64,000 nt of DNA from Amoebidium appalachense (taxonomy: Eukaryota; Protista; Ichthyosporea), in the NCBI GenBank assembly GCA_963693365.1, contig CAVNZM010000013.1, positions 8,246,940 through 8,310,939 on the forward strand. The letters are read 5' to 3'. The notes under the pieces are model-generated. The model was not told the DNA's origin, searched no databases, and worked only from the letters and a program-made list of their open reading frames with translations. The translations under genes and the position numbers were made by a program. Below are positions 168-63,938 of the stretch, in pieces (the stretch's first letter is position 1; each line of letters opens with the position of its first letter).

Positions 168-10096
<9,929 letters not shown>

Positions 10097-10776
10097 GGTG
10101 CCCTAGTGATGTGCTGCAATATATGTGTCTACCGGTATGGCTACTGGCCTTTCTAGCAACTCAAAGCCAAAGAAAGCATCAGGCGGTCAGCTAATCTGTG
10201 CCAGCACTGCTTTACTACAGTAACTTGAGGGGTGCAGTACAACGAGCACGTCAGGGCCTGTGGCCCCGTTGAAGTACGAAGTTGGTTGCTGCGAAAACGC
10301 ATCACGTACAGTCGCACCTTTTGTTTTTTTTTGATTCAAGAGCAGAATCATTTTCTGATTGGCAAATACTCTGAATATTTGAGCAAGATCTGCTCATCTA
10401 ATTGGTTGGCCTGTGAGCCACGCTCAACACACACACACGTGAAAACGTGAAAAAAAGGGGGGTGCGGCATGCCAGGAGCTACTACTAGAGAGAAGGGGGG
10501 GGTATGATTGGAGGGGGGGGTGTTCAGCTAACCTTATATGGATAAAGCAAAGTTACAAGGATTCAAGCCATTGGTTGGGCAAGACCCCTTTTGCCGAATA
10601 TGGATAACAGATCATACACTGCTGTAGGCGGCGGTCAGGAATTGGCGCGCTCTTTACTGGTCACAACCAGTCCGGGAAGGCCATGAGCAGCATTGCCGAG
10701 CACACTGGAATACGGGAATGTTTGCGGTAACGTAGTCGCACTAGGGGGGCAGGGGGCCAGGCCCCAAGTGTTTAAA

Positions 10777-12285
10777 ATGAAGCCAGGCTGCCCTAAGGGC
10801 ACAACACAGCGCCCTGGGCATAAAACAGGCGGAGCTAGGGAGGGAGCTGGGCGCAAAAAAAAAGATGCTGCATTTGTTCAGCCTTTAGCGAACTTTGCAG
10901 GTTTTGGGACGGCAAACAAAGCTGTTTTGCAGGAACTAAACGTAAACGTACAACCCGAACAGCCCCCTCTATCTAAGGCCGCCGACATAAGGGCCCGTGT
11001 AGTTGAGGCAGGTAGCGTCCATTCGTTACCAAGAGAAATGGATCGGGCCCCTGCTCCACACCCACCAGACATACAGGTGCAACCCGACGAGGAACCTTTG
11101 CTAAATGCAGCAGCAGATGCGTACCGGGTAGACGAGGATGAAGGGGAGGAAGAGGGAGAAGATAATACGGACGGGGATGACGGTGGAGAGGAGTTTTCTG
11201 ACGCGGCGGGCGAAACAATCAAGTCGCACCTGCACACAGTGAAAGAGAGTCTCAAAGATGAGAAGACGCCTGTGGGGTGGCATCTTCCACCTCCCATTAT
11301 AGGCTTTAATTTTGGGGGCGATCCAGCGCCTTTCTACAAACCCAGATGTTTTGCCTGGCTTCCGGAAAGGTTGTCTCCCGGTTTCATGGTGCCGTGCCCC
11401 TTCGATGATCACTACGTGGACCCCCACAACCACCCCAACCCACACCGTACTTCTCGCAATGGGTTCATGAGCAACCCCGTAGGACGGCGTGTTATCGACT
11501 TTGACAGCTGCTACTACATTATCACGGCCCGGTACTTTTGTGACACATGCAAAAAAAACTTTGCCGGCACAAACCCCCAGACAATTAAACGCCTTCCACT
11601 CTTCATGCGTGATCAGTTTCCGGCCTACCTTAGCCACCGCAGTGGGCTCGACCTAAAGGTGGTAACATTGTTGCGTGCACTGGCAGACAAAGGTGTGGGC
11701 CCAAACGCCTTTGCCACCCTCCTCTCGGAGCTCCACAAGCAGCGATACGACGAGCAGCGGCTCCTGTATTACTCGAGGGCGCTGCATTGGACCAAGTATG
11801 AACTCAAAAAGCGTAACGATTTCCGCCCCCACGACCAGCGCCTGACAGAACTTCCCCCAGAGGAGCAGGCGGCTAAGTTCTCGGCGTTTGGTGACAAAAA
11901 TGGTTACGCTGGACATGTGCCTTCAGGCAAGTGTGCACTGCATTTTGGGTGTGTAAATGGTCCCCATTGTTTTGTATGCACGTGCTTGGGCATTTTTTGG
12001 GTTGGCTTGGTAGGGTTTTGTTTTATTATTTTTTATTTTTTTTTTAGGGGGGGGGGGGGACTTGGAAATGGGTTTTGGAAGTGTGGTCAATAAGTTTCTA
12101 TTATGGTGGTGGTGGATGTGTGGTGGTGGATGTGCGCCTGTGAGTGTGCGTGTACTTGTGGGTCCGTGTGTGTGTGTGTGTGTGTGGGGGAGGGGGGGGG
12201 GGGGGGAGGGGGGAGGGGGGACATGGTGATGGATTAGGTGGTGGTGGTGGCAATCAGTCATGGTGGTGGTGGTGGTGGTGGTGGT

Positions 12286-12337
<52 letters not shown>

Positions 12338-12481
12338 AGGGATCATCAGAGGGGTGAAAGCATAACGGTCCATGTACCAGTGAGTGTGCTTGGGAAATCG
12401 TGGAGAACTGTTATGCCTGAAATTAGATGGTGGGTGTGCGCATGTGTGTCTGTGTGTGTTGGGGGAAAGGAGGTGGAGAGG

Positions 12482-12515
<34 letters not shown>

Positions 12516-12713
12516 GGGGCACATGGTGGTAGACTGGATCTTGGTGGCGGTACTTAATGGTTATTATAGTAGTGGCAGGAGGGTGTGGGGGGAAGGGCAA
12601 ACGGACGTGCAGGGGACAAACTGCAGATGGGGCACAAAGGGGAAAGAAGGTGAAAGTTGGTGCAATGACTTGGAGGGTTTGCGCGCGCCGGGAGGCGGGG
12701 GGAGGGGGGGGGG

Positions 12714-12749
<36 letters not shown>

Positions 12750-13179
12750 AACGGCCGGAGATGGGTGTGTAGCGTTTTTGAGATGGGAAAAGCCATACAG
12801 ACTTACGAAAATACAGAGAGGTGAGATGAACACGAGGGACTAGAGGGAATGGGGGGGATGGTCCTGATGGGAGGGTGGTGGAGTTCTAACAGTACTTGGG
12901 GTTCAGGCAAATACCTGAGTGCCGTGTATACTGAGTTCAGCGACCGCACGGCAAAGTACCAGAGCCTGGACACGCAGCTCAAGCCCGTAAACAACGTGCT
13001 CAAGGCCGACCACACCTTCCAAATTGGGAAGCTCACCGGCATCAATGGGGAGCCTCTGTACCGAGGCCTATGGACTTGTGTAAACGAGCTTGGCGGTGTG
13101 TGGTCCCTCCTCTTCTCCCCCCTCCCCCCACTCTCCCCCAGGCCCCCTTCCCCCCCCCCCCCCCCCCCCCCCACACCCC

Positions 13180-13210
<31 letters not shown>

Positions 13211-14989
13211 ACACGCCCCCCTCCCCCCCCCTCCCCCCCCTCCCCCTCTAGGGCCTTTAAATCTCTTAGGCTCCACATTTAATGAGGTGGCACACTGTGA
13301 GTAGAGGTTTGTAGTATGTGGGTTTTGGGGACAATTCTTGCCCTGTCGAGCAAAAACTAGGAAGCTCCAGATATGTGTGTATGTGTTTTTGCTGGGTAGA
13401 GATTGGGGTGGGCTGGGGTGGAGCTTTCTTTTGGCGGGGAATCGGGGGGGGGGGGGGGGGGGGGGGGGGAGGGGGGGGGGGGGGGGGGGGGGGGCAAGCT
13501 TCTGCCAAGCAGAATGGGAGTAGGGGCCAGTGATTGCAAGGGATGCAGGGGGGGGGGGGGGGGGGGGGGGGAGACACCACCGTCGGGGTTGAAGGTAGAG
13601 AGGGCAAGAGGCCCGGGGTGGGGTGGGGGGGGGGGGGGGGGGGGACAGTAGGTGCCATATGGAGGGCTGTCCCATGGTTTGGGGGGAGGGGGGAGTGGGG
13701 AAGGATCGTGGGCACATGGGTTTGGGGGGAAGGCAGAGAGGGGGAAAGGATTGTGATCACAAGGGTTTAGGGGGAGGAAGGGGGAAGGATTGTAGGTACA
13801 TGGGTTTAGGGGGGAGGGGGGGGGGGGAAGATTTTGGGGGAAAGGGAGGCCTGGGGAAAGTATGTGGGCACATGGGTTTGGGGGGAAGGAGGGGGAAGGG
13901 TTTTGGGGGAGAGGGAGGGGAAAGTATGTGGGCACATGGGTTTGGGGGGAGGGAGGGGGAAAGGATTGTGTGGGCACTGAAGTCTCGTGAAGGGCCATGT
14001 GGTAAGGGAAGCTAGAACATGCATGGCCGCTCGGAGATGCCCTCTCACACAGTGCGGCACCCCAGAGATCCGGGCGCAGGTATTTACACGGGACTGCAGC
14101 CACCAGGAGATTGAGCCCGTGATCCAGCGCATCTCTGCCACCACGGCGGCGCTCAACAGCAAGGGCCCGGCCTTCTTCTACACAGATCGGTGCTGCCAAG
14201 ACCGGGCGTTTGTTGAGCGCATGTTTCCAACCCTAGCCCGGCCAAAATGCCCCGTCCGTCTGAACGAGGCTGCGCTGGTAAGCGTGACGGACGGTCTGCC
14301 TGGGCTGGAGCTGCCGGCCAACTACCCTAAGCCGGTGTACACCGACTGCCAGGGGGCGGTGGTGGCTACAGCGGCCATTCGTGCCGACCTGGAGGGGCAG
14401 CAGCACCGCGTGGTGGGGCTGGACTGCGAGTGGGTCTATCGGGTGGGCCAGGCGCGGTCCAAGGTTTGCACGCTGCAGATTGCCACCGCACGGGCCGTGT
14501 ACATCTTCCACTTGGCACGCATGGGCCCCAACCACAGCCCGCCCGCGCGGCTGGTGGACGAGCTGATTGCGCTGCTTAGGGACCCCAGCATCATCAAGGT
14601 GGGCAAGCAGATCGGCACGGACTCGGCCCACCTCAACAAGGACTACGGCACCCCTGTGGCCAGCTATCTGGAGCTGGGCCGGTTCTGCTATGCCCGTGCA
14701 GCTATCACCTCTGCGGCCCGGGGCTTGGCCGACATCACTGCCCAGGTCATAGGCAAGAAGCTGCCCAAGCCGGCACTTGTTCGATGCTCCAACTGGCACG
14801 AGCCGCTATCAGAGGTGCAGGCCACCTACGCTGCCCTTGATGCATATGCGTCCCTGCAGGTCTACTCGGCCGTGGTCGATAGGCCAAACCTGTCAGGTGT
14901 GTATCCCACCTGCTTTTTGCCCCAGTGCTTATGTGCTTATGCCAGATATAGAAAGATTGTGGGCCCCCCAGAGGAGAGGGGGAGGGGGA

Positions 14990-15026
<37 letters not shown>

Positions 15027-15117
15027 GGCTGACCACATGGGCCAGTGTTCCAGTTGTGTTATGCTGGGTGTCGGGTGGCTATCAAAGGAGGGGGTGATTG
15101 GTGGTGGTGGTGGTGGT

Positions 15118-15150
<33 letters not shown>

Positions 15151-16197
15151 CTATAGCACTGTTAACACGTGCAAGTGCCACACAAGCTGGGCACTGGGAG
15201 AGGGGGGGGGGGGGAGGGAGAAGGGGGGGGGGGGGGGGGGGGAAGGGGGTTGCTAAGGAATATGCATTTGATTTTTGTGGAGCGAAGAGAAAAACGTTGG
15301 TGCTGTGGCTTTTTGGCTGAGTTTTTTGCTTCCCTCTATGACATGCAGCGCGGCTTCATGCAAAGGCACTCGGTGAAGGGGTTGAGATTGTGCCCCGGCG
15401 GGGCCCACATGCTGCAGCAGCCACCGGGGTGGTGCTGGCTGTGCAGCCGGAGCGCTGGGGGGGCATGAAGGTGGGCAAGAAGCATGCAGTGGTGCGGGTG
15501 GATCAGGTGCTGTCGCCGGCCATGCAGGTGCCCTTTGGCCCCGACAAGGGCAAGACCCTGGGAGAGCTGGGCCCGCCGCCCTTTGAGCTGATGGTGCACC
15601 TGCAGTGGCTACGGCCCATTCAGCCCCCACCGGACCCAGGTGCCGAGGTGCCGGTGGTCCCTGACCCAGCCCCTCCCCCTGCCAGTCCTCCCCCTGCCGA
15701 GCAGCAGCAACCCCTTGCCGGCCCACAGGCACCCCCCCAGGACCCCCAGGCAGCCCCGGGGGGCCTTGAGGCAGCCCCAGGGGGACCCGAGGCAGCTCCC
15801 AGAGAGGGCATGTTGGGCCAGGCACCGCCTGGGGAGGTGGTGTGGCAGACTGTGCTGAATGACGCCTTCCACTCCATTGCAAACACGGCGGACGGCACGT
15901 ACAAGTCACACCCCCGCAGGGCTGAGTACGCACGCGCACTCAGCGAGGCAATATTTGTGTGGAATGAAGAGGATTACGGACATGTGAAGGTGCCCCCCCC
16001 CCCTCCCCCCCCCCCCCCCAAAATAAAAAATAAAAAATAAAAATAAAAAAAACGGCAACAACAACATGCGTGACTGACGCGCACACACACATACACTCGT
16101 TAGCACACACTCACCATTCCACCCACAACCATGCACACCTTCGACAAAACTTCTGAGGGAAGAGAGAGAGCCTGAGCCTCAGAGAGAGGGGGGGCAA

Positions 16198-16251
<54 letters not shown>

Positions 16252-16824
16252 GGAGAGTGGGGGTTATTCATATGCCTAGAGAGAAATAATGTAGGGTTGT
16301 GGGGGGAAATAGCCACATGCATTTTTTACTTGTGTTGGGGGAGAAGATGGGGGGGGTGGAGGGGAGGGGTCCTACAATAACGGCAGGTATCAAAGTCTAC
16401 CAAACCCAAATTGCAGTGTGCGTAGTAAATTAATATTGGCATCCTGCCTCACAGGGGGTGCTGGAGCAGAAGGGCATCGACATTGAAACCGAGCTCAAGG
16501 GCGGCGACCTGAGCTACTTCATGGAGCGCATCCGGCGGGTTATTCCCGACCCATACACGCTGGTCTCGCGGCTGGTGGAGTTCAAAAACACCTACAAGGA
16601 TGTGCCGCCCGGACCGGATGGCAAGCCTCTGTTCAAGAAGGATGGCTTTGAAAGACTCGAGGCAACATCCCCCCCCCCCCCCCCCTCCCCCTGCAGGCGC
16701 CCAACAACTCCACCACCACAGAAAAGATTCTTCGCTTATTTGTCATCCTTGGTTCATCTGCACACACACGCACACCCTAGCCTCCCCCCCCCCCCCCCCC
16801 CCCCCCCTCCCCCCCCCCAAACAT

Positions 16825-16894
<70 letters not shown>

Positions 16895-16966
16895 CCCGCA
16901 CGGCCCTTGCTGCCTAGCCAGTTGTTTTTTGCCTTTCCCTGCTCGTTTTTTTCCTTAGCAACCCCA

Positions 16967-17046
<80 letters not shown>

Positions 17047-18695
17047 CCACCACCACCACCCACCCATCTCTCTGATGTTTGCTTGTGCCCCCACAGTCGC
17101 TGCTCGAACACGCCCAAAATGGCTGTCTGTCGGACCCCCCCGGCCTGCCCCTCTACTACGAGACCACTGCCGACGCAGATGGGCTCATGCGCTACCGCTG
17201 CATCCGGGGCACCAACGAGGTGGAGGGGGCAGTGCACAACCCCCTGGCCACCCACTTTGGGGCCACACGCATGTCGCTGCGCCTGCTGGACGCCACCATG
17301 TCCAATAGGCGCCACCGCCACAACCTGCGTGCACACTACCGCAACCGCCTGGGCCAGGCATCGGGGCCCCCCCACTACAGCCCCTGGATTGTTGACGACA
17401 TGGAGGCACTGGCGCTGATGCTGTACGGCCATCACCTCGACCCCCAGTGGGTACCCGTAGGCTGCTACAAGCTACCGGAGGAGTACTTCAACTTTGCCCC
17501 GCTCTCCTGTGTGGCCAATGCCCCGGCGCAGGAGCCAGTTGCGGTGCCCGCACCCCCACCTCCGTCTGATAACATCGAGCCTGCAGCCAATGGCGTGATG
17601 GGCGGGCCAGAGGACTGTGAGGTCGAGGAGGGTGACGGTGCTGCCATGGGGGGGGGCAACCAGGTGGCGCGTGGTGCACCACAGCCGGACCCTGCACTGA
17701 GGGGCGACTACAAGTTCCTGGCGCAGAAGCAACATGTGGCCATCCCCTTCCTTCCGGTGCTTACCCCTCAGGAGCGCAAGCTATTCAGCACGCTGCTCCT
17801 GGGCACCTACAAGGCACATGCAAAGCCCAACGGCCAGCTGTTCGAGGCTTTGGCCCAAGACTTCAACAAGGCTGCCTCTGTGGCTGGGGGAATCTACATG
17901 AAGGATGCGGCCTACATCAAGAAGCATTTCGACAAGTGGAAGACCTGGCAGACGGCACATGCACAGCGCTCCACACACGAGGGCCTGGCAGATCACCGCA
18001 AGCGTATGCGCGAGGAGAGGGCAGACGCTGTGCCAGCAACCATACGGCCTGCCCCCTTGCCACCCCTCCCTGTTCCAGACGGTGTCGATGCAGGGGCGCA
18101 GCGTGAGCGGCCCTTGCCCATGCTAGTGGGCAAAAAGCATCGCAACATTGGCCCTGAGGGGCCCCTGCAGATGGATTTGCCGGTGCCCCCTCCTATGCAG
18201 CCACCCCAGAGAGCCCCCAAGACCTGCAAGACGTGTGGCCGCCAGGGCAAGGGCTGCCCCGGCTCCAATCGGGCCAAGAGCTGCCCACGTTGGGTTGCAG
18301 CCAATCAGGATGCCATGCCACCAGCACCCGCGCTTGACATGCAGCAGGGCCATGTGCCGCACATGCCCCCTGCACCCCATCCAGGCCCGCACCACCCACA
18401 TGGCTGGCCCCCACCGTGGGGCATCATGCCGCCTCAGCCCGGCCCTGCCTTCCCCATGCCTGGGCTACTGCCGCAGCACGGTCCCCATCCTTACTTGGGC
18501 CATGTGGGCCAGCCCTCGGCTGGTGGGCAGTTCCCACCCCCTTCTCGTGCATCTGCTGTGCTGGGCCTGGCGTTGCCACCTGCTGGAGAGACGCAGCTGC
18601 AATGGCACGATCGAAAGCAAAGTAATCGTGGCCGCAAGTCTGCAGGCAGCCAATCAGGATCTCAGAGTAGTCAGAGTAGCCAAACTAGTGTCTAA
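10777..18695 (+). CDS. DUF6729-like DDE transposase (Mutator/ISL3-like D-D-DxxH-E pattern) with an inserted DEDDy 3'-5' exonuclease domain, ~1538 aa
   Basis: Exons 10777-11926, 12907-13095, 14066-14896, 15349-15989, 16455-16661, 17097-18695 total 4617 nt, phase-consistent and open. Motifs in order: GGAREGAGRK; VPCP..RRVIDFDSCYYIITARYFCDTC..FPAYLSHRSGLD; LKADHTFQ; VNELGEI; FFYTDRCC; exonuclease VGLDCEW / QIGTD / VRCSNW / YAALDA; LNDAFH; GCLSDP; YRCIRGTNEVEG; C-terminal CKTC..CPG..C. Family names are from motif recall, not a database search. Confidence 0.8.
13670..13976. repeat. G-rich ~42-bp degenerate tandem repeat in intron 2 of the transposase gene
   Basis: About 7 recurrences of GTGGGCACATGGGTTTGGGGGGA...GGGGAAAGGATT-like units. 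Confidence 0.8.
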
Positions 18696-18781
18696 TATTG
18701 GAATGTACACCAATGTAACGGATCTCATATGTGTTGTAGTGCTTCAAGTTATACCTGTTCTTCGTACAGTCATGTTAGGGG

Positions 18782-18812
<31 letters not shown>

Positions 18813-19115
18813 CTAGCTTTCATTCCGAAGTTTACTGTAAAGAATTAAAATTTAGAATCTGAGTAATAGTACAGAGCCTTTGCACTTTTCTCTGTTTGTT
18901 AGGAATTCTTTGTGATCGAGAGTATGGTGTGTTAGACTATTGGTGTTAATGTGTCCTGGAAGGTGTATAATGTCTGCTGGCCGTAGTCAGTATCTATTTT
19001 TAGGTATATAGTATATTTTTAAATGTTGGCCGCTGGCCAATAAATAGCAAATAATAAACACACGATAAAGTCAACAGCGTGCCAAAAAACTAATCCCCAG
19101 CGAGCGCACCCAGTG

Positions 19116-19208
<93 letters not shown>

Positions 19209-20541
19209 CGCGCGCGCGTGCGTGCGTGTGTGTGTGTGTGTGTGTGCGTGCGTGCGTGCGTGTGTGCGTGTGTGCGTGTGTGCGTGTGTGCGTGTGTGTG
19301 TGTGAGTGTGTGTGTGTGTGTGTGTATGTGTGGTGTGGTGTGTGCGCGGCTTGTACATATGTACGTGTTCATGTGCACCTGTGTCGGACCTACGAAGTAC
19401 ATGAAAGTAAATTTTGACAGCATCGATCTGCCGGTGTGTATGTGTATGTGTGCCAGTGCAGCAGGTGTGCCTTGTAACTGATAGCTTCGCATTTTACGTG
19501 TGTGTATATATAGTAGTACGCATAGACACTTGCTGATCATTCGGATCGACATTAATATTTAATCTGTCGGTCCTCGGTTTTTTGAGTGAATGATGATCAA
19601 GTGTAAGAGCATTCACTTGGCAAGTATTAATGTTGCAGAGGCTAGCTGCAGCTGCAAGCGTCGGATGCACACTGACAATTGTCTTTTCAGCGAGTCTAAC
19701 CTGCAGGCAGCAGCTGCACACATATAGGGTTGTTATCTTGCGGCACATGCACGGTGATCATTTCAGAGTAATAGAGTTCAGAGCAATGAAAATAATGAAA
19801 ATAACTAAACTTTGTGACTACTTTAAAGTTGCTGAGATCATACGTGGTGCAAGCTGCACTATGAACACATGTATAGTGCTAGTAATTAATACATTTTTGT
19901 TGCCTTCTGCAGGGTTATCGTAGCTACGTCACGGCCTGCACTCAGGGGGGGGGAGGGGGGGGGGAGGGGGAGGGGGGATGATTCGAAGGGGGTATAAATA
20001 AGAACATGCACCTAAAGGTCTTTCCCGTGGATCCTCCCCCCTCCCCCCCCACCTCTCCCTCCCCCGGGGCCCCATACTATGATATCTAGGCCCAATATTA
20101 TATGCCCCCTTCCCCCCCCCCCCCCCCCCCTCCCCTCTCCGGATCCCCGGACCCCACTTCCCTACCCGGAGGCTCAAGAGCTCCCCCTTCCCCTTCCCCC
20201 CCCCCCCCCCCCCCCAAGGCTTACGGGGGCCCTTCTTCATCGAGGGGGAGGGGGTGGGGGTGGGGGGGTGGGGGGAGGGGGTGGGGGGGAGGGGAAGTGG
20301 AAGGCGGGGGGTGGATGCATGTCAGCCTAGGTGAATTCAATTGTTTAACTCCAGTGTGCAGGACTGGTCTGAAGGCTTAAGAAAACAACGAGGAAATGGG
20401 GTCCAGTGGAGGTGGTGGTGGTGTTCTGTGTGTGTGTGTACACGTGCACGTATGTGTGTGGTTTTTTTAAGGGGTGAGTGGTGGTGGTGGTGGTGGTGGT
20501 GGTCACCGTGGTGGTGGTGTGTGTGTCTGGTGTGTGTGTGT

Positions 20542-20586
<45 letters not shown>

Positions 20587-23056
20587 TAGAAAGAAAAACT
20601 GCTCGTGGGTCACTGTTTTTCGTCACTGTATTTGTAACGGGCCGCTCATATTTATATAACTACTTTAATTTAAGTACACGTGTTCATTATCATATACGAT
20701 GGCCAAATATAGAAATTTTGGCGTCGAAGTTCTTGGAGCTAAAAAAACGTTTAAAAGGGGGAAATAATAGCTTGGCCCCAAATTTACCTTGCCGTTTTTA
20801 GCGAATGTATTTTTTATTCATGAGTTCTAGTGATTCAGTGAGTGCACGTGCCTGCCTCAGGCTGATCATGACAACTGCAACACACCATTCCTACATGGAT
20901 ATCAACCAAAAGAAAATAGTATATACTGTGGTGGTCTCCTAAACCTTGTGCGGCATGCGCATACATGATATTACAGTGACGCATGTGCATATTATTGTTC
21001 TGTACACCGGAGTGTGCCGGTGCACGTGGCTGTTTTGTGCACATGTTACAATAGCAGCACGATCTCCCTAAACTCCATGTTTACACATCCCTCACCCTGG
21101 CTCTGCCTTGTCGGTGCTCCAAAACACACATACAAATCCCCCTAGACTCAGTGCCTGCACATGGTCGCATTCACGTGCAGGTCACGTGACACATGCGATG
21201 CCATACTGCCGTCTACAGCAACAACCACGGCAGCATGTATACCGGCCCAGCACGAAATATACTTATCGGCAGCCCACTGAACTCGCCCATTTTCTCTTTT
21301 TCATGTATGTCCCTCCTTTTTTGTAAAATCACCCTTTTTGGCCTCCCGGTAGTGGATTTTGCAGGATTTGACTTCTTTGAGGTCCAAAAACCTCAAATTT
21401 TCCCCGGCGGGGCCGGGGAGGGAGAATTCAAAAATTGCCCGCTCCTGATATGGTACCCGGGCCCGTGAAAATATCACACACAGTGACATGACCGTGGCAC
21501 ACACACATGTTCTCTCTCTCAACCCCTCAAGCAAAAGTCGCACTGCACAGATCAGGCAGTCCATGTACAGTAGCTATGTGGTGTTCGAAACTGGTAAGTA
21601 CACCACATGTTAGCTAACGAAATAGAACCGGAGGTGATGGGCGGTTTTATTCTCTTTACCACCTCCCTTCCTCAATATCATTGTTTTAAAATGACTATTT
21701 TAGATCACCTTAAGAATGCTGCACAGTATGATATTGTGATACGGTGTCTTAACTTTCTTTCGGAGTTACCAATGCTAGCCTCTGCTTACCCATAATATGT
21801 AATAGGGTTGTCATATGCTACGACGGCACTAAATGTTGCTTAGCATGTACATATGTCACTAGCTGCATTTGATTGGCTGCGCTGGAAAACGCAGTAGGCC
21901 GTTGAGTGAGGCTGGGCCCCAGACAGTGTCCACAGCAATAAATAGTGTGTAAACCCCCCTGTATGCAAAGTGGCAGCTGTGTGCGGACCATAGGCAATCG
22001 ATAATAAGGAAGGGGACTCATTATTGACAACATGTGCGTATTTGTTACACCACGTTTATATATAATACGAAACCTGGGTGTGTGACTGGATGTGTGTGTG
22101 TGTGTGTCTGTGTGTGTCTGTGTGTGTGTGATACTGTGTGCGTGCGTGCGTGCGTGTGTGTTGAGAAGCGGGCGGCAGGGGGTAAGGGGGGGGGGGGGGG
22201 GGGGGGTTCAGGCACACGTGTGACAACGATTCTATCTCTTGTCTTTACTTATTTCTTTTTTTCTGCGGGCCGGCCGCAACCGCTTCACACACACAAAAAC
22301 CGAAGAAAAAAAATTGCCATTCGTGATCAACTAGCACGTGAACACCATCAGTCAACTCTAGCATGCTACCTATGTGCGAATGTGCAAGCGCCATGCACAC
22401 AAACAGCGTATTTATGTCGGGGAGGATTCTTGTGTCTGCCTTCAATGGCTTTAATCGAGCATCTGAGAGCATACTGCAAGTAATCTACAAACAAAAAACG
22501 AATAACTGTACATGCATGCAAGGGGGGCATAAAAAACTCAGTGTGATGTGTGGTGTCGTTTCATTCAGGCCACCCTTCATGCTGGCTGTGTAGTGCTGTG
22601 AAGGCCTTGCCGCATTGCCGCAAACACAAACCAGAAGTGTTGAATTTAATTGGTCGAAAATCATTGCTGTGGAATATACACACAGCTTGTGGTGGACAGC
22701 TACCTTTACAACATTCGAGAATACACGGACTCGATTCAACAATTAACACTCAGATGTACATGCGAAGAGGTATACTATGCATGGTTTTACAGGAAGAGAA
22801 TGAATGCTACATAACCGAAGGTAAACCGAAAGTGAACGATTGGGACGCGAAAGGAGTAGTAGGAGACCGGGGTGAGGGGTGTTCTTTTGCCTTTGTGTGT
22901 GTGTAGGTGTGTGTGTGTGTGTGTGTGTGGTGGTGGTGGTGGTGGTGGGGGGGGGGGGGGGGGGGGGGGGGAGGGGGGGGGGGGGACGTACCAAGCTTAA
23001 ACTATTGGCAGCAGCAGCATACCTAGGGGGCCTCGCTTTAAGTCTGGAGTGCTGCC

Positions 23057-47737: not shown

Positions 47738-60143
<12,406 letters not shown>

Positions 60144-62390: not shown

Positions 62391-63806
62391 AACACATAGA
62401 CAAGCGCACACACACACACAAACACAAGCACACACGCACAAGCACATGCACACATACATACTCACACACTTGCGAGTGGGGGCGCGCACACACACACACA
62501 TACACACACACACAGACACACACACACAACACACACACACACACAAACACGCATACACATACTCGAACACACAAGCACAAACATGCATACACAAACGCGC
62601 ACACACAAACACAAACACAAACACACACACCTCCTCTACTCTTCGTGCCCATCCATTCAGAATCATCACTCCATGTGCTATTGCTACTGTGTTAGTCATA
62701 ACCAGGATCCCAAAGACCCCCTGGCACCACAGCCCCCGCCTTCCCCTCCCCCCTCTCCCCCCTTCCCTCCCCCCCCCCCCCCCCGTTCTTCCTTTCCCCC
62801 CATTCATTCCATGCTCCCCCCCTCACCCCCTCCCCCCCCCCCCCCCCCCCCCCCACCCGCCCTTTTCCCCTCCAGTCCTCCCTCCCCGGGGCAGCCCACT
62901 CTGCATTGTACATCTCCCTGGGATATTACACCAATAAATACCCCCCCAGTTTCTGTTGGGTCACCACCATTCAACTAGATCTGTTCCAAACTAAACTTCT
63001 GCAACAGCCTACGGGCACTGACGACAGACTGACCATTATCCCTGCATGTGAGCCTACTGGTTGGATAATACAGAACAGAGTTGCCTTATTCTCAAGTAAG
63101 CAAAGACCACGCACAAGTAGTCTAACACGTGCTTACCCCATGAACAGCAATACGGTGGAGCTATCTCTTCTCTGTCGCAAGCCATCATCGACGACAGCAG
63201 GTTCATAAACAATTCCGCTGACTCTGCCGGTGGGCTCTTTGTGGCAAATGGGGATGTGCATGTTTCGAACAGTGTGTTTGAGAGCAACAGGGGCACGAAC
63301 GGGGATGGTGGTGCCATCAATGCACTTGCAGGGAGCATTTGGATGCGCGAGTCGAAGTTTGTAGGGAACTCTGCGCAGTCAGGGGGGGCCGCGTGTTCAA
63401 AAAGGGACATTTTCGCTAATACGAGCATTTTTCTGAGTAATTCTGCCTCCGAATATGTCAGCAGCGAAGACTTAATGATGGGGATGGCTCAAAATTACGG
63501 GGGGGCTCTATTTGCATTTGGAAATATCACGGCCTACAACTGTGCAATAGAAAACAACAGTGCCATTGTAGATGGCGGTGCAATTTACACGGTGGCAATG
63601 GGGGTCCTTGCAAATTGCACGGCACGGAATAACTCGGCAGTGGGTTATGGGGGGGTTGTACGGGCAGGGGCGACAGTTTTCATAGTAGATGGGGGTCCGT
63701 ACGAAAATAATACGGCAGGTCTGGGTGGGGGGGTGGCCAGTCTCTACCAGGGCAATGCAACCATTGGGGCTGGCTATGCATCAGACACCGTGTTTATTTC
63801 AAACAG
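61226..63806 (+). CDS. Paralogous GGA-repeat secreted or receptor protein, first two exons; continues beyond the right edge
   Basis: Exon 61226-61840 (signal peptide, Cys-patterned N-terminal domain) and exon 63148-63806 (QYGGAIS...FINNSA...NYGGAL...VFISN). Same intron positions and phases as the neighbouring RTK. Confidence 0.85.
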
Positions 63807-63938
63807 GTAAGTCGTCTTTGCTGTGCATGCCAGAGAGTAATGGGGGTGCAAGTTGGAGTGAGAGAGCGATGGGACGGAGGTGTAGAGAATACGGAGGGGT
63901 GAGGATGGGAGGGGGAGTGGGCGTGTGTGTGTGTGTTT

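Follow-up and report, generated by a model that had tools for sequence, protein, structure and literature searches.

At positions 10777-18695 (plus strand) of a 64,000-nucleotide stretch of the genome of the ichthyosporean Amoebidium appalachense (assembly GCA_963693365.1, contig CAVNZM010000013.1, positions 8,246,940-8,310,939 of the forward strand; hereafter the window) lies a gene for a DDE transposase that carries a DEDDy exonuclease of the WRN type inside its catalytic core. The gene very probably belongs to a transposon of the Dada superfamily. Rebuilt from the window, it has six exons whose 4617 bases join into a single open frame of 1538 amino acids.

Gene structure and transcripts

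Exon 1 (10777-11926) encodes a basic N-terminus, an acidic tract and a DUF6729 region (11239-11802) with the putative zinc ligands C207, H212, C255 and C258. The first catalytic aspartate, D418 (codon at 13008, in ADHTF), lies in exon 2 (12907-13095) together with strands 1-3 of an RNase H fold. Exon 3 (14066-14896) supplies the second, D487 (14185, YTDRCC), and the entire exonuclease (about 14293-14886), with its motifs DCE (14422-14430; D566/E568), QIGTD (D632), RCSNW and YAALD (Y701/D705). An SH3/KOW/Tudor-like barrel (15351-15629), a proline-rich linker and the DxxH motif (15861, DAFH, residues 895-898) follow in exon 4 (15349-15989), and a helical insertion domain in exon 5 (16455-16661). 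Exon 6 (17097-18695) holds the catalytic glutamate E1049 (17223, RGTNEVE), a helical region, a cysteine cluster (C-x2-C-x6-C-x8-C, 18225-18284), a disordered tail and the stop. Introns 1 and 5 are of the GC-AG type and the remaining three GT-AG. The GC donors belong to two of the five introns (11927-12906 and 16662-17096), and introns in the window are rich in poly-G/C and dinucleotide runs.

A first-pass annotation of this DNA had proposed the spliced frame, the four core motifs and the exonuclease motifs, all confirmed at the positions it had assigned, and had noted a C-terminal cysteine cluster. Its description of the N-terminus as AT-hook-like is less well founded than it had implied: Pfam gave no match there at E up to 10, and the RGRP core of an AT-hook is absent.

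Exonuclease and transposase are encoded as a single 1538-residue polypeptide. P0009, a transcript-derived protein from Amoebidium parasiticum, equals the gene model at 1537 of 1538 residues, the sole difference being N178K, and exon 3 used as a query retrieved a transcript-assembly protein with 100% identity. The corresponding cluster of transcript proteins (EukProt) has 18 members, and 14 of the 15 members listed bear the A. parasiticum label. The RNA-like sequencing run X11 has joints spanning three of the introns (1, 3 and 5), and at intron 2 a loose end coincides with the end of exon 2. The match to P0009 and the X11 joints therefore place both domains on one transcript, whereas the first-pass annotation had allowed that the exonuclease exon might belong to a separate one.

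Sequence variation was slight, with only five substitution sites listed across 10457-19110. One of these, 11310, lies in codon 178 and explains N178K; it appears to be private to the copy in the window. Two length differences represent variant copies or alleles: one X11 contig has 22 nucleotides inserted at 10516, and a 15-nucleotide in-frame deletion at 15672 was seen in run X15 and in isoforms such as P0006.

Conserved domains and homologs

Pfam recognized DUF6729 (residues 155-342, E = 2.7e-17) and DNA_pol_A_exo1 (residues 557-715, E = 5.9e-14), the two domains anticipated in the first pass. A HMMER search of 1.84 billion representative proteins gave 3819 matches at E up to 0.001, and our analysis is based on the 150 matches listed; a word-based homolog search missed the transposase family (4 and 5 matches). 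Pairwise alignments covered all four catalytic motifs in 73 of the 149 non-self matches listed. In an alignment of 113 homologs, the DDE/DxxH residues were strongly conserved: D418 in 90 of 98 spanning rows (the other 8 being gaps), D487 in 100 of 103, D895 in 108 of 113, H898 in 109 of 113 and E1049 in 108 of 112. Similar figures hold for the exonuclease (D566, 96/107; E568, 97/108; D632, 102/112; Y701, 110/113; D705, 107/113). Among the putative N-terminal zinc ligands, C207 was present in 50 of 50 homologs, C255 in 48 and C258 in 30; H212 was not aligned.

Organism names were looked up for 20 homologs and obtained for nine, all fungal (Mycena, Panaeolus, Candolleomyces, Leucocoprinus, Hymenopellis, Ephemerocybe, Podochytrium and Circinella). 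As leads only, Atlas clusters combining DUF6729 with an exonuclease occur in Basidiomycota and Mucoromycota, and clusters of the C-terminal core include Chordata. Additional protease domains occur in some Dada homologs, P0019 and P0025: an OTU-like domain in a Podochytrium protein made of three tandem units, and a Ulp1/Peptidase_C48 match in P0025.

Predicted structure of the split core

AlphaFold2 was run on P0005 (residues 365-1538) with 71 sequences and returned a predicted template modelling score of 0.69. The predicted secondary structure is that of an RNase H fold, with three strands (D418 in the first), a helix and a fourth strand ending at D487, at which point the insert begins. After it come a short fifth strand, the DxxH motif, a helical region and a helix bearing E1049. 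In a wide fold search, the best transposase among the 50 matches listed was the IS256-family enzyme ISCth4 (Z = 13.9, root-mean-square deviation (rmsd) 4.4, 249 residues aligned). The match pairs model positions 7-727 with chain positions 130-390, and so draws on both sides of the insert; that chain range contains the ISCth4 residues D175, D241, C262/H265 and E348 (PMC7780238). The flanking segments are thus predicted to form an ISCth4-like RNase H core, from which the exonuclease and the barrel protrude as a loop between the fourth and fifth strands. Foldseek and a second look at its output gave exonucleases and polymerases only among the matches listed, and no transposase.

The exonuclease itself was matched more closely. 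WRN exonuclease ranked first in the wide fold search (Z = 27.5, rmsd 1.7, 184 residues aligned) and was the best hit of a sequence search of the Protein Data Bank (PDB; E = 8.4e-49), where only exonuclease-type matches occurred among the 41 sequences listed. RNase D (Z = 20.2), Nibbler and RRP6 were among its close structural relatives.

The first pass had put the insert at about 200 residues. An exonuclease of that kind is indeed present, but the distance from the second aspartate to DxxH is 408 residues, adding to the exonuclease an SH3-like barrel of about 90 residues and a disordered proline-rich linker. The barrel was modelled with high confidence (predicted local distance difference test 92.5) and visual inspection recognized it in 36 of the 44 rows of homologs listed. 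Its resemblance to KOW, Tudor and PWWP barrels (Z up to 6.8) indicates a common SH3-type arrangement only. A likeness to the Transposase_23 domain was set aside, as Pfam gave no such match. We regard the barrel as a small addition to what is known of these proteins; the consulted text of the 2013 description of Dada (PMC3706591) contains no mention of one.

Membership of the Dada superfamily

According to Kojima and Jurka (2013; PMC3706591), who defined the Dada superfamily, an exonuclease lies inside the DDE core in families from Laccaria bicolor (Dada-1_LB and Dada-2_LB) and Ectocarpus siliculosus (Dada-1_ES). The Amoebidium protein has the DDE triad with DxxH after the second aspartate, as described for the superfamily, and between these a DEDDy exonuclease with all its catalytic residues, as in the exonuclease-bearing type. 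P0085, a match at E = 2e-47, shows 30% core identity with the window protein, and 98 of 161 residues of its exonuclease (~60%, counted by hand) agree with Dada-1_LB as given in Fig. S1 of that paper. Because the arrangement was published in 2013, the element is a new example and not a new kind, and the 'poorly described transposon group' of the first pass gives way to a named superfamily.

Dada proteins without the insert tie in through a stickleback protein, P0175, which lacks the exonuclease and was matched by our family profile at E = 2.5e-45. The match falls into two blocks, profile positions 2-198 and 577-773, that flank the insert position and lie nine residues apart in P0175. Its spacings match those of Dada-U6_DR: 5/32/3 against 5/35/3 between zinc ligands, 134 against 135 from the zinc ligands to the first aspartate, 69 against 68 between the two aspartates, and an exact 3/10/9 in the C-terminal cluster. 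The two aspartates of the window protein are likewise 69 residues apart, against 68 in Dada-U6_DR. P0175 also matches DUF6729 over all 229 positions (E = 2.1e-91), and DUF6729 therefore marks the Dada N-terminal region; a literature search on 'DUF6729' found no paper.

A FastTree phylogeny was built from 51 core sequences, with the one fish protein serving as root. It grouped P0085 and the window protein in a clade of 43 leaves (support 0.97), within which the nearest relatives of the window protein were weakly placed (support 0.136). Given its one outgroup, we did not use this tree as proof of membership.

Element ends, copy number and host neighbour

Four of 23 listed sequencing runs were compared with 7300-19110. 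In X3, three contigs from the flank had depths of 19.4-21.8 and five from the element 1460-2873, a ratio of about 70-150. X15 gave eight contigs at a flat depth of 2.4-5.1 that cover the element from 10457 to beyond 19110, introns included, with the left flank absent. Depths in X2 were very uneven (flank 3.8-79.6, element 179-13757). These figures suggest roughly 70-150 near-identical copies; contig depth is not itself a copy number, the labelling of runs as DNA or RNA is guesswork and X2 is uneven, so the number of copies is inferred.

The likely left end is at 10455-10457 on the plus strand, where a G6 run follows an A7 run. Contigs of single-copy depth in X2 and X3 run through the flank to 10484, 30 letters past 10454, and an X15 contig starts at 10457, which indicates a fork in the assembly graph. 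On the 3' side, non-coding DNA at 18696-19117 (plus strand) is still multi-copy, covered by an X3 contig at 18826-19077 and an X15 contig at 18863-19110 that runs on. The right end accordingly lies at or beyond a TG array at 19117, and the element is at least 8.66 kb long.

Exact inverted matches between 10457-10540 and 18696-23000 measured only 7-8 bp, none reaching 9 bp, a result valid for terminal inverted repeats (TIRs) if the right end lies before 23000; the 40 longest inverted matches likewise included no TIR at the left end. A 7-bp GGGTGCG pair (10460 and 19105) was rejected as the element ends, being one of 16 seven-base matches. The left flank ends in A7 and runs of A6-A8 occur downstream; Dada target-site duplications (TSDs) measure 6-7 bp.

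Left of the element, on the minus strand at 7475-10096, lie the 5' exons of a host gene for a P-type cation ATPase, identified from its joints, its introns (8494-8804 and 8875-10030) and its translation; the Cation_ATPase_N match (E = 1.1e-4) lies above the cutoff. We take this neighbour, from its motifs, to be PMCA-like. Its ATG at 10096 is 361 bp from the likely left end and the two genes are head-to-head, so the insertion could affect ATPase expression. A 10-bp direct repeat, ATATGGATAA, occurs at 10536-10545 and 10598-10607, a short way upstream of 10632, where the 5'-most of the listed RNA contigs begins; its two copies are possible promoter or transposase-binding sites, in surroundings that are presumably CArG-box-like.

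The position next to a host gene bears on one alternative, raised already in the first pass, that the locus is a domesticated, single-copy, Dada-derived host gene encoding a DNA- or RNA-processing nuclease. An intact frame with five introns, strong representation in transcript assemblies and the head-to-head placement 361 bp from a host gene would all suit such a gene, and cypriniform fish provide a precedent in a domesticated Dada (PMC8869645). We nevertheless consider it very unlikely, because no catalytic residue has been lost and the read depth suggests many copies that are nearly identical. The step of about 70-150-fold from flank to element in X3 includes introns and 3' non-coding DNA, and X15 has the element without its left flank. 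Introns are normal in Dada (PMC3706591), and in the fish dDada the DDE/DxxH residues, intact here, are mutated (PMC8869645).

The depth might itself stem from copies arrayed in tandem, from an episome or from very strong expression, in place of dispersed recent transposition; the guessed run types, depths summed over contigs and the lack of a directly seen second copy leave room for this. However, one X3 contig at depth 1460 spans both borders of exon 2 unbroken, and the contig at 18826-19077 (depth 1915) lies 3' of the end of the X11 RNA at 18739, from which we argue that X3 is DNA. Uniform flank depth across an ATPase intron/exon border argues likewise, and the fork in the assembly graph implies that other sequences, too, adjoin the left end. 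We hold an array, episome or expression effect to be improbable.

Every Dada family with defined termini inserts in small-RNA genes, according to PMC3706591. In the window, ARAGORN and Rfam at its gathering threshold each returned none, and the 90 Rfam matches obtained for 5000-26000 with E as high as 10 contained no small-RNA target; a scan for pol III boxes gave scattered matches only. The family could still be target-specific, its usual home a multi-copy small-RNA gene and the window copy off-target or one-ended. The right end has not been located, and the Dada literature describes copies that have a non-target sequence on one side or lie off-target altogether (PMC3706591, PMC8869645). We think this unlikely, though less so than the two preceding alternatives: no tRNA, snRNA or 5S match was found in the window, the X15 contig stops one letter before 10457 and does not run into a shared flank (a single contig, and weak evidence), and Table 1 of PMC3706591 gives the exonuclease-bearing families no target in their names.

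Elsewhere in the window, the output of a repeat finder was dominated by microsatellites. AT-rich repeats are present as a tandem array of a 91-bp unit at 6499-6944 (4.9 copies, 96% matches) and a 19-bp array at 6032-6192. Exons of a tyrosine-kinase-type protein kinase (PK_Tyr_Ser-Thr, E = 2.8e-21) lie at 47741-52285 on the minus strand. Two open reading frames, at 58008-58673 (minus) and 63121-63807 (plus), contain Chlamydia PMP-type repeats, one with an additional right-handed beta helix match, and are possibly extracellular parts of receptor-like proteins.

Discussion

We conclude with high confidence that the transposase gene at the Amoebidium locus is intact, is spliced and transcribed, and belongs to an exonuclease-bearing Dada transposon that is likely young and present in many copies. 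The core of the enzyme is predicted to cut and paste the element, and its exonuclease to trim 3' ends. None of the alternatives weighed in this study, four in all, excludes the assignment to Dada.

A number of observations pull the other way. The N-terminal zinc ligands read C-H-C-C at spacing 5/43/3, with histidine second, against a published CCCC at 5/35/3, and the C-terminal cluster, though located at the corresponding place, is CCCC (3/7/9), against the CCHC (3/10/9) stated in PMC3706591 for all Dada transposases; among 131 matches with an RGT[NS]xxE motif, 20 have the CCCC pattern, one CCHC and 110 neither. The link to named Dada families rests on Fig. S1 and printed residue numbers. ISCth4 ranked only 25th in the fold search, at rmsd 4.4, and the homologs were ranked with an exonuclease-containing query, so the frequency of the insert among them is inflated. 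Several assembled isoforms keep part of intron 1 or end after exon 4. No TSD and no empty site were seen and the right end was not located, so neither end is proven. To these are added the missing small-RNA gene, the guessed run types and the uneven depths of X2.

In the mechanism that we propose, the N-terminal zinc/DUF6729 region would bind the element ends, and the split DDE/DxxH core, judging from its fold and conservation, would cut and join DNA. The looped-out exonuclease would act on 3' DNA ends exposed during transposition. Its likeliest substrates would be 3' ends of host DNA, either at the donor break or in the gaps that follow strand transfer: by general DDE chemistry the element needs its own 3'-OH for that transfer, and degrading it would abort integration. 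A role for the exonuclease in end-trimming has also been proposed in print, and our literature searches found no paper testing the exonuclease of an exonuclease-bearing Dada.

Alternatively, the exonuclease may be a passenger. Its substrate would then be RNA or stray single-stranded DNA, not transposition ends, and it might serve, for instance, to counter host silencing. Fish Dada proteins such as P0175 do without it, making it dispensable for the superfamily, and its close structural relatives include the RNases RNase D, Nibbler and RRP6. Yet both sequence and fold match best the exonuclease of WRN, a DNA enzyme (Z = 27.5 against 20.2 for RNase D), and the domain is physically tied into the catalytic core, with about 90% of homologs retaining it intact. 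We therefore prefer action on transposition ends, and regard the passenger role as a minority view, the least unlikely of the four alternatives.

Compared with Dada-1_LB, Dada-2_LB and Dada-1_ES, the element shares the DDE and DxxH residues, the DEDDy exonuclease between the second aspartate and DxxH, the introns and the lack of detected TIRs, and its length of at least 8.66 kb falls inside the published Dada range of 4.7-11.0 kb (PMC3706591). It differs in its ichthyosporean host, in the C-terminal CCCC and N-terminal C-H-C-C patterns and in the SH3-like barrel. The likely 70-150 copies in Amoebidium contrast with 15 Dada copies in Ectocarpus (PMC12477816). Searches of fungi with Dada profiles have recovered 1,023 elements bearing a transposase, from four phyla (PMC5751038). 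We found no paper on Dada in Ichthyosporea, and 'Dada' is absent from the main text of PMC11244446, whose supplements may list it. With the U6, U1, tRNA and 5S lineages the protein shares, by way of fish P0175, a homologous transposase core and the DUF6729 region, but it carries a 408-residue insert where P0175 has 27 residues, and no small-RNA gene was found at its flank. Fish host both target-specific Dada lineages and one domesticated copy with mutated DDE/DxxH (PMC8869645).

Beyond Dada, ISCth4 (PDB 6xg8) and the MULE/hAT/P/Kolobok clan have the same RNase H core with C/DxxH starting a helical insertion; ISCth4 has no inserted exonuclease, possesses TIRs and moves by copy-out/paste-in (PMC7780238). 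KolobokD, compared here by its description, is a C/DxxH-clan transposon whose DnaQ-type 3'-5' exonuclease has been suggested to break down DNA intermediates, but that enzyme is DEDDh, not DEDDy, and the element belongs to the Kolobok superfamily with a TTAA TSD (PMC9587614). The WRN exonuclease domain (PDB 2e6l and 2fbt) matches in fold and DEDDy motifs; in WRN it is fused to a RecQ helicase, whereas here it is inserted in a transposase.

A broader proposal, which we advance tentatively and judge possible but short of probable, is that exonuclease-bearing Dada form a target-unrestricted sub-lineage. The Amoebidium family would then be amplifying now (~100 copies), expressed and landing outside small-RNA genes, here in a host promoter, and the three-domain insert, made up of exonuclease, barrel and linker, would reshape the ends, so that TSDs would not follow the 6-7 bp rule seen in fish Dada.

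With the architecture in print since 2013, the locus adds no new system, and its value is modest and practical. One small addition is that the Pfam domain DUF6729 is tied to the Dada N-terminal region. Isolates of this protist have been sequenced, and comparing the copies of an intact, spliced family that is apparently high-copy would make ends, TSD and target preference definable; an Amoebidium Dada would also allow direct testing of the end-trimming idea. If the family is indeed target-unrestricted, it would offer a ready, intact test system for a proofreading-type exonuclease borne by a transposase.

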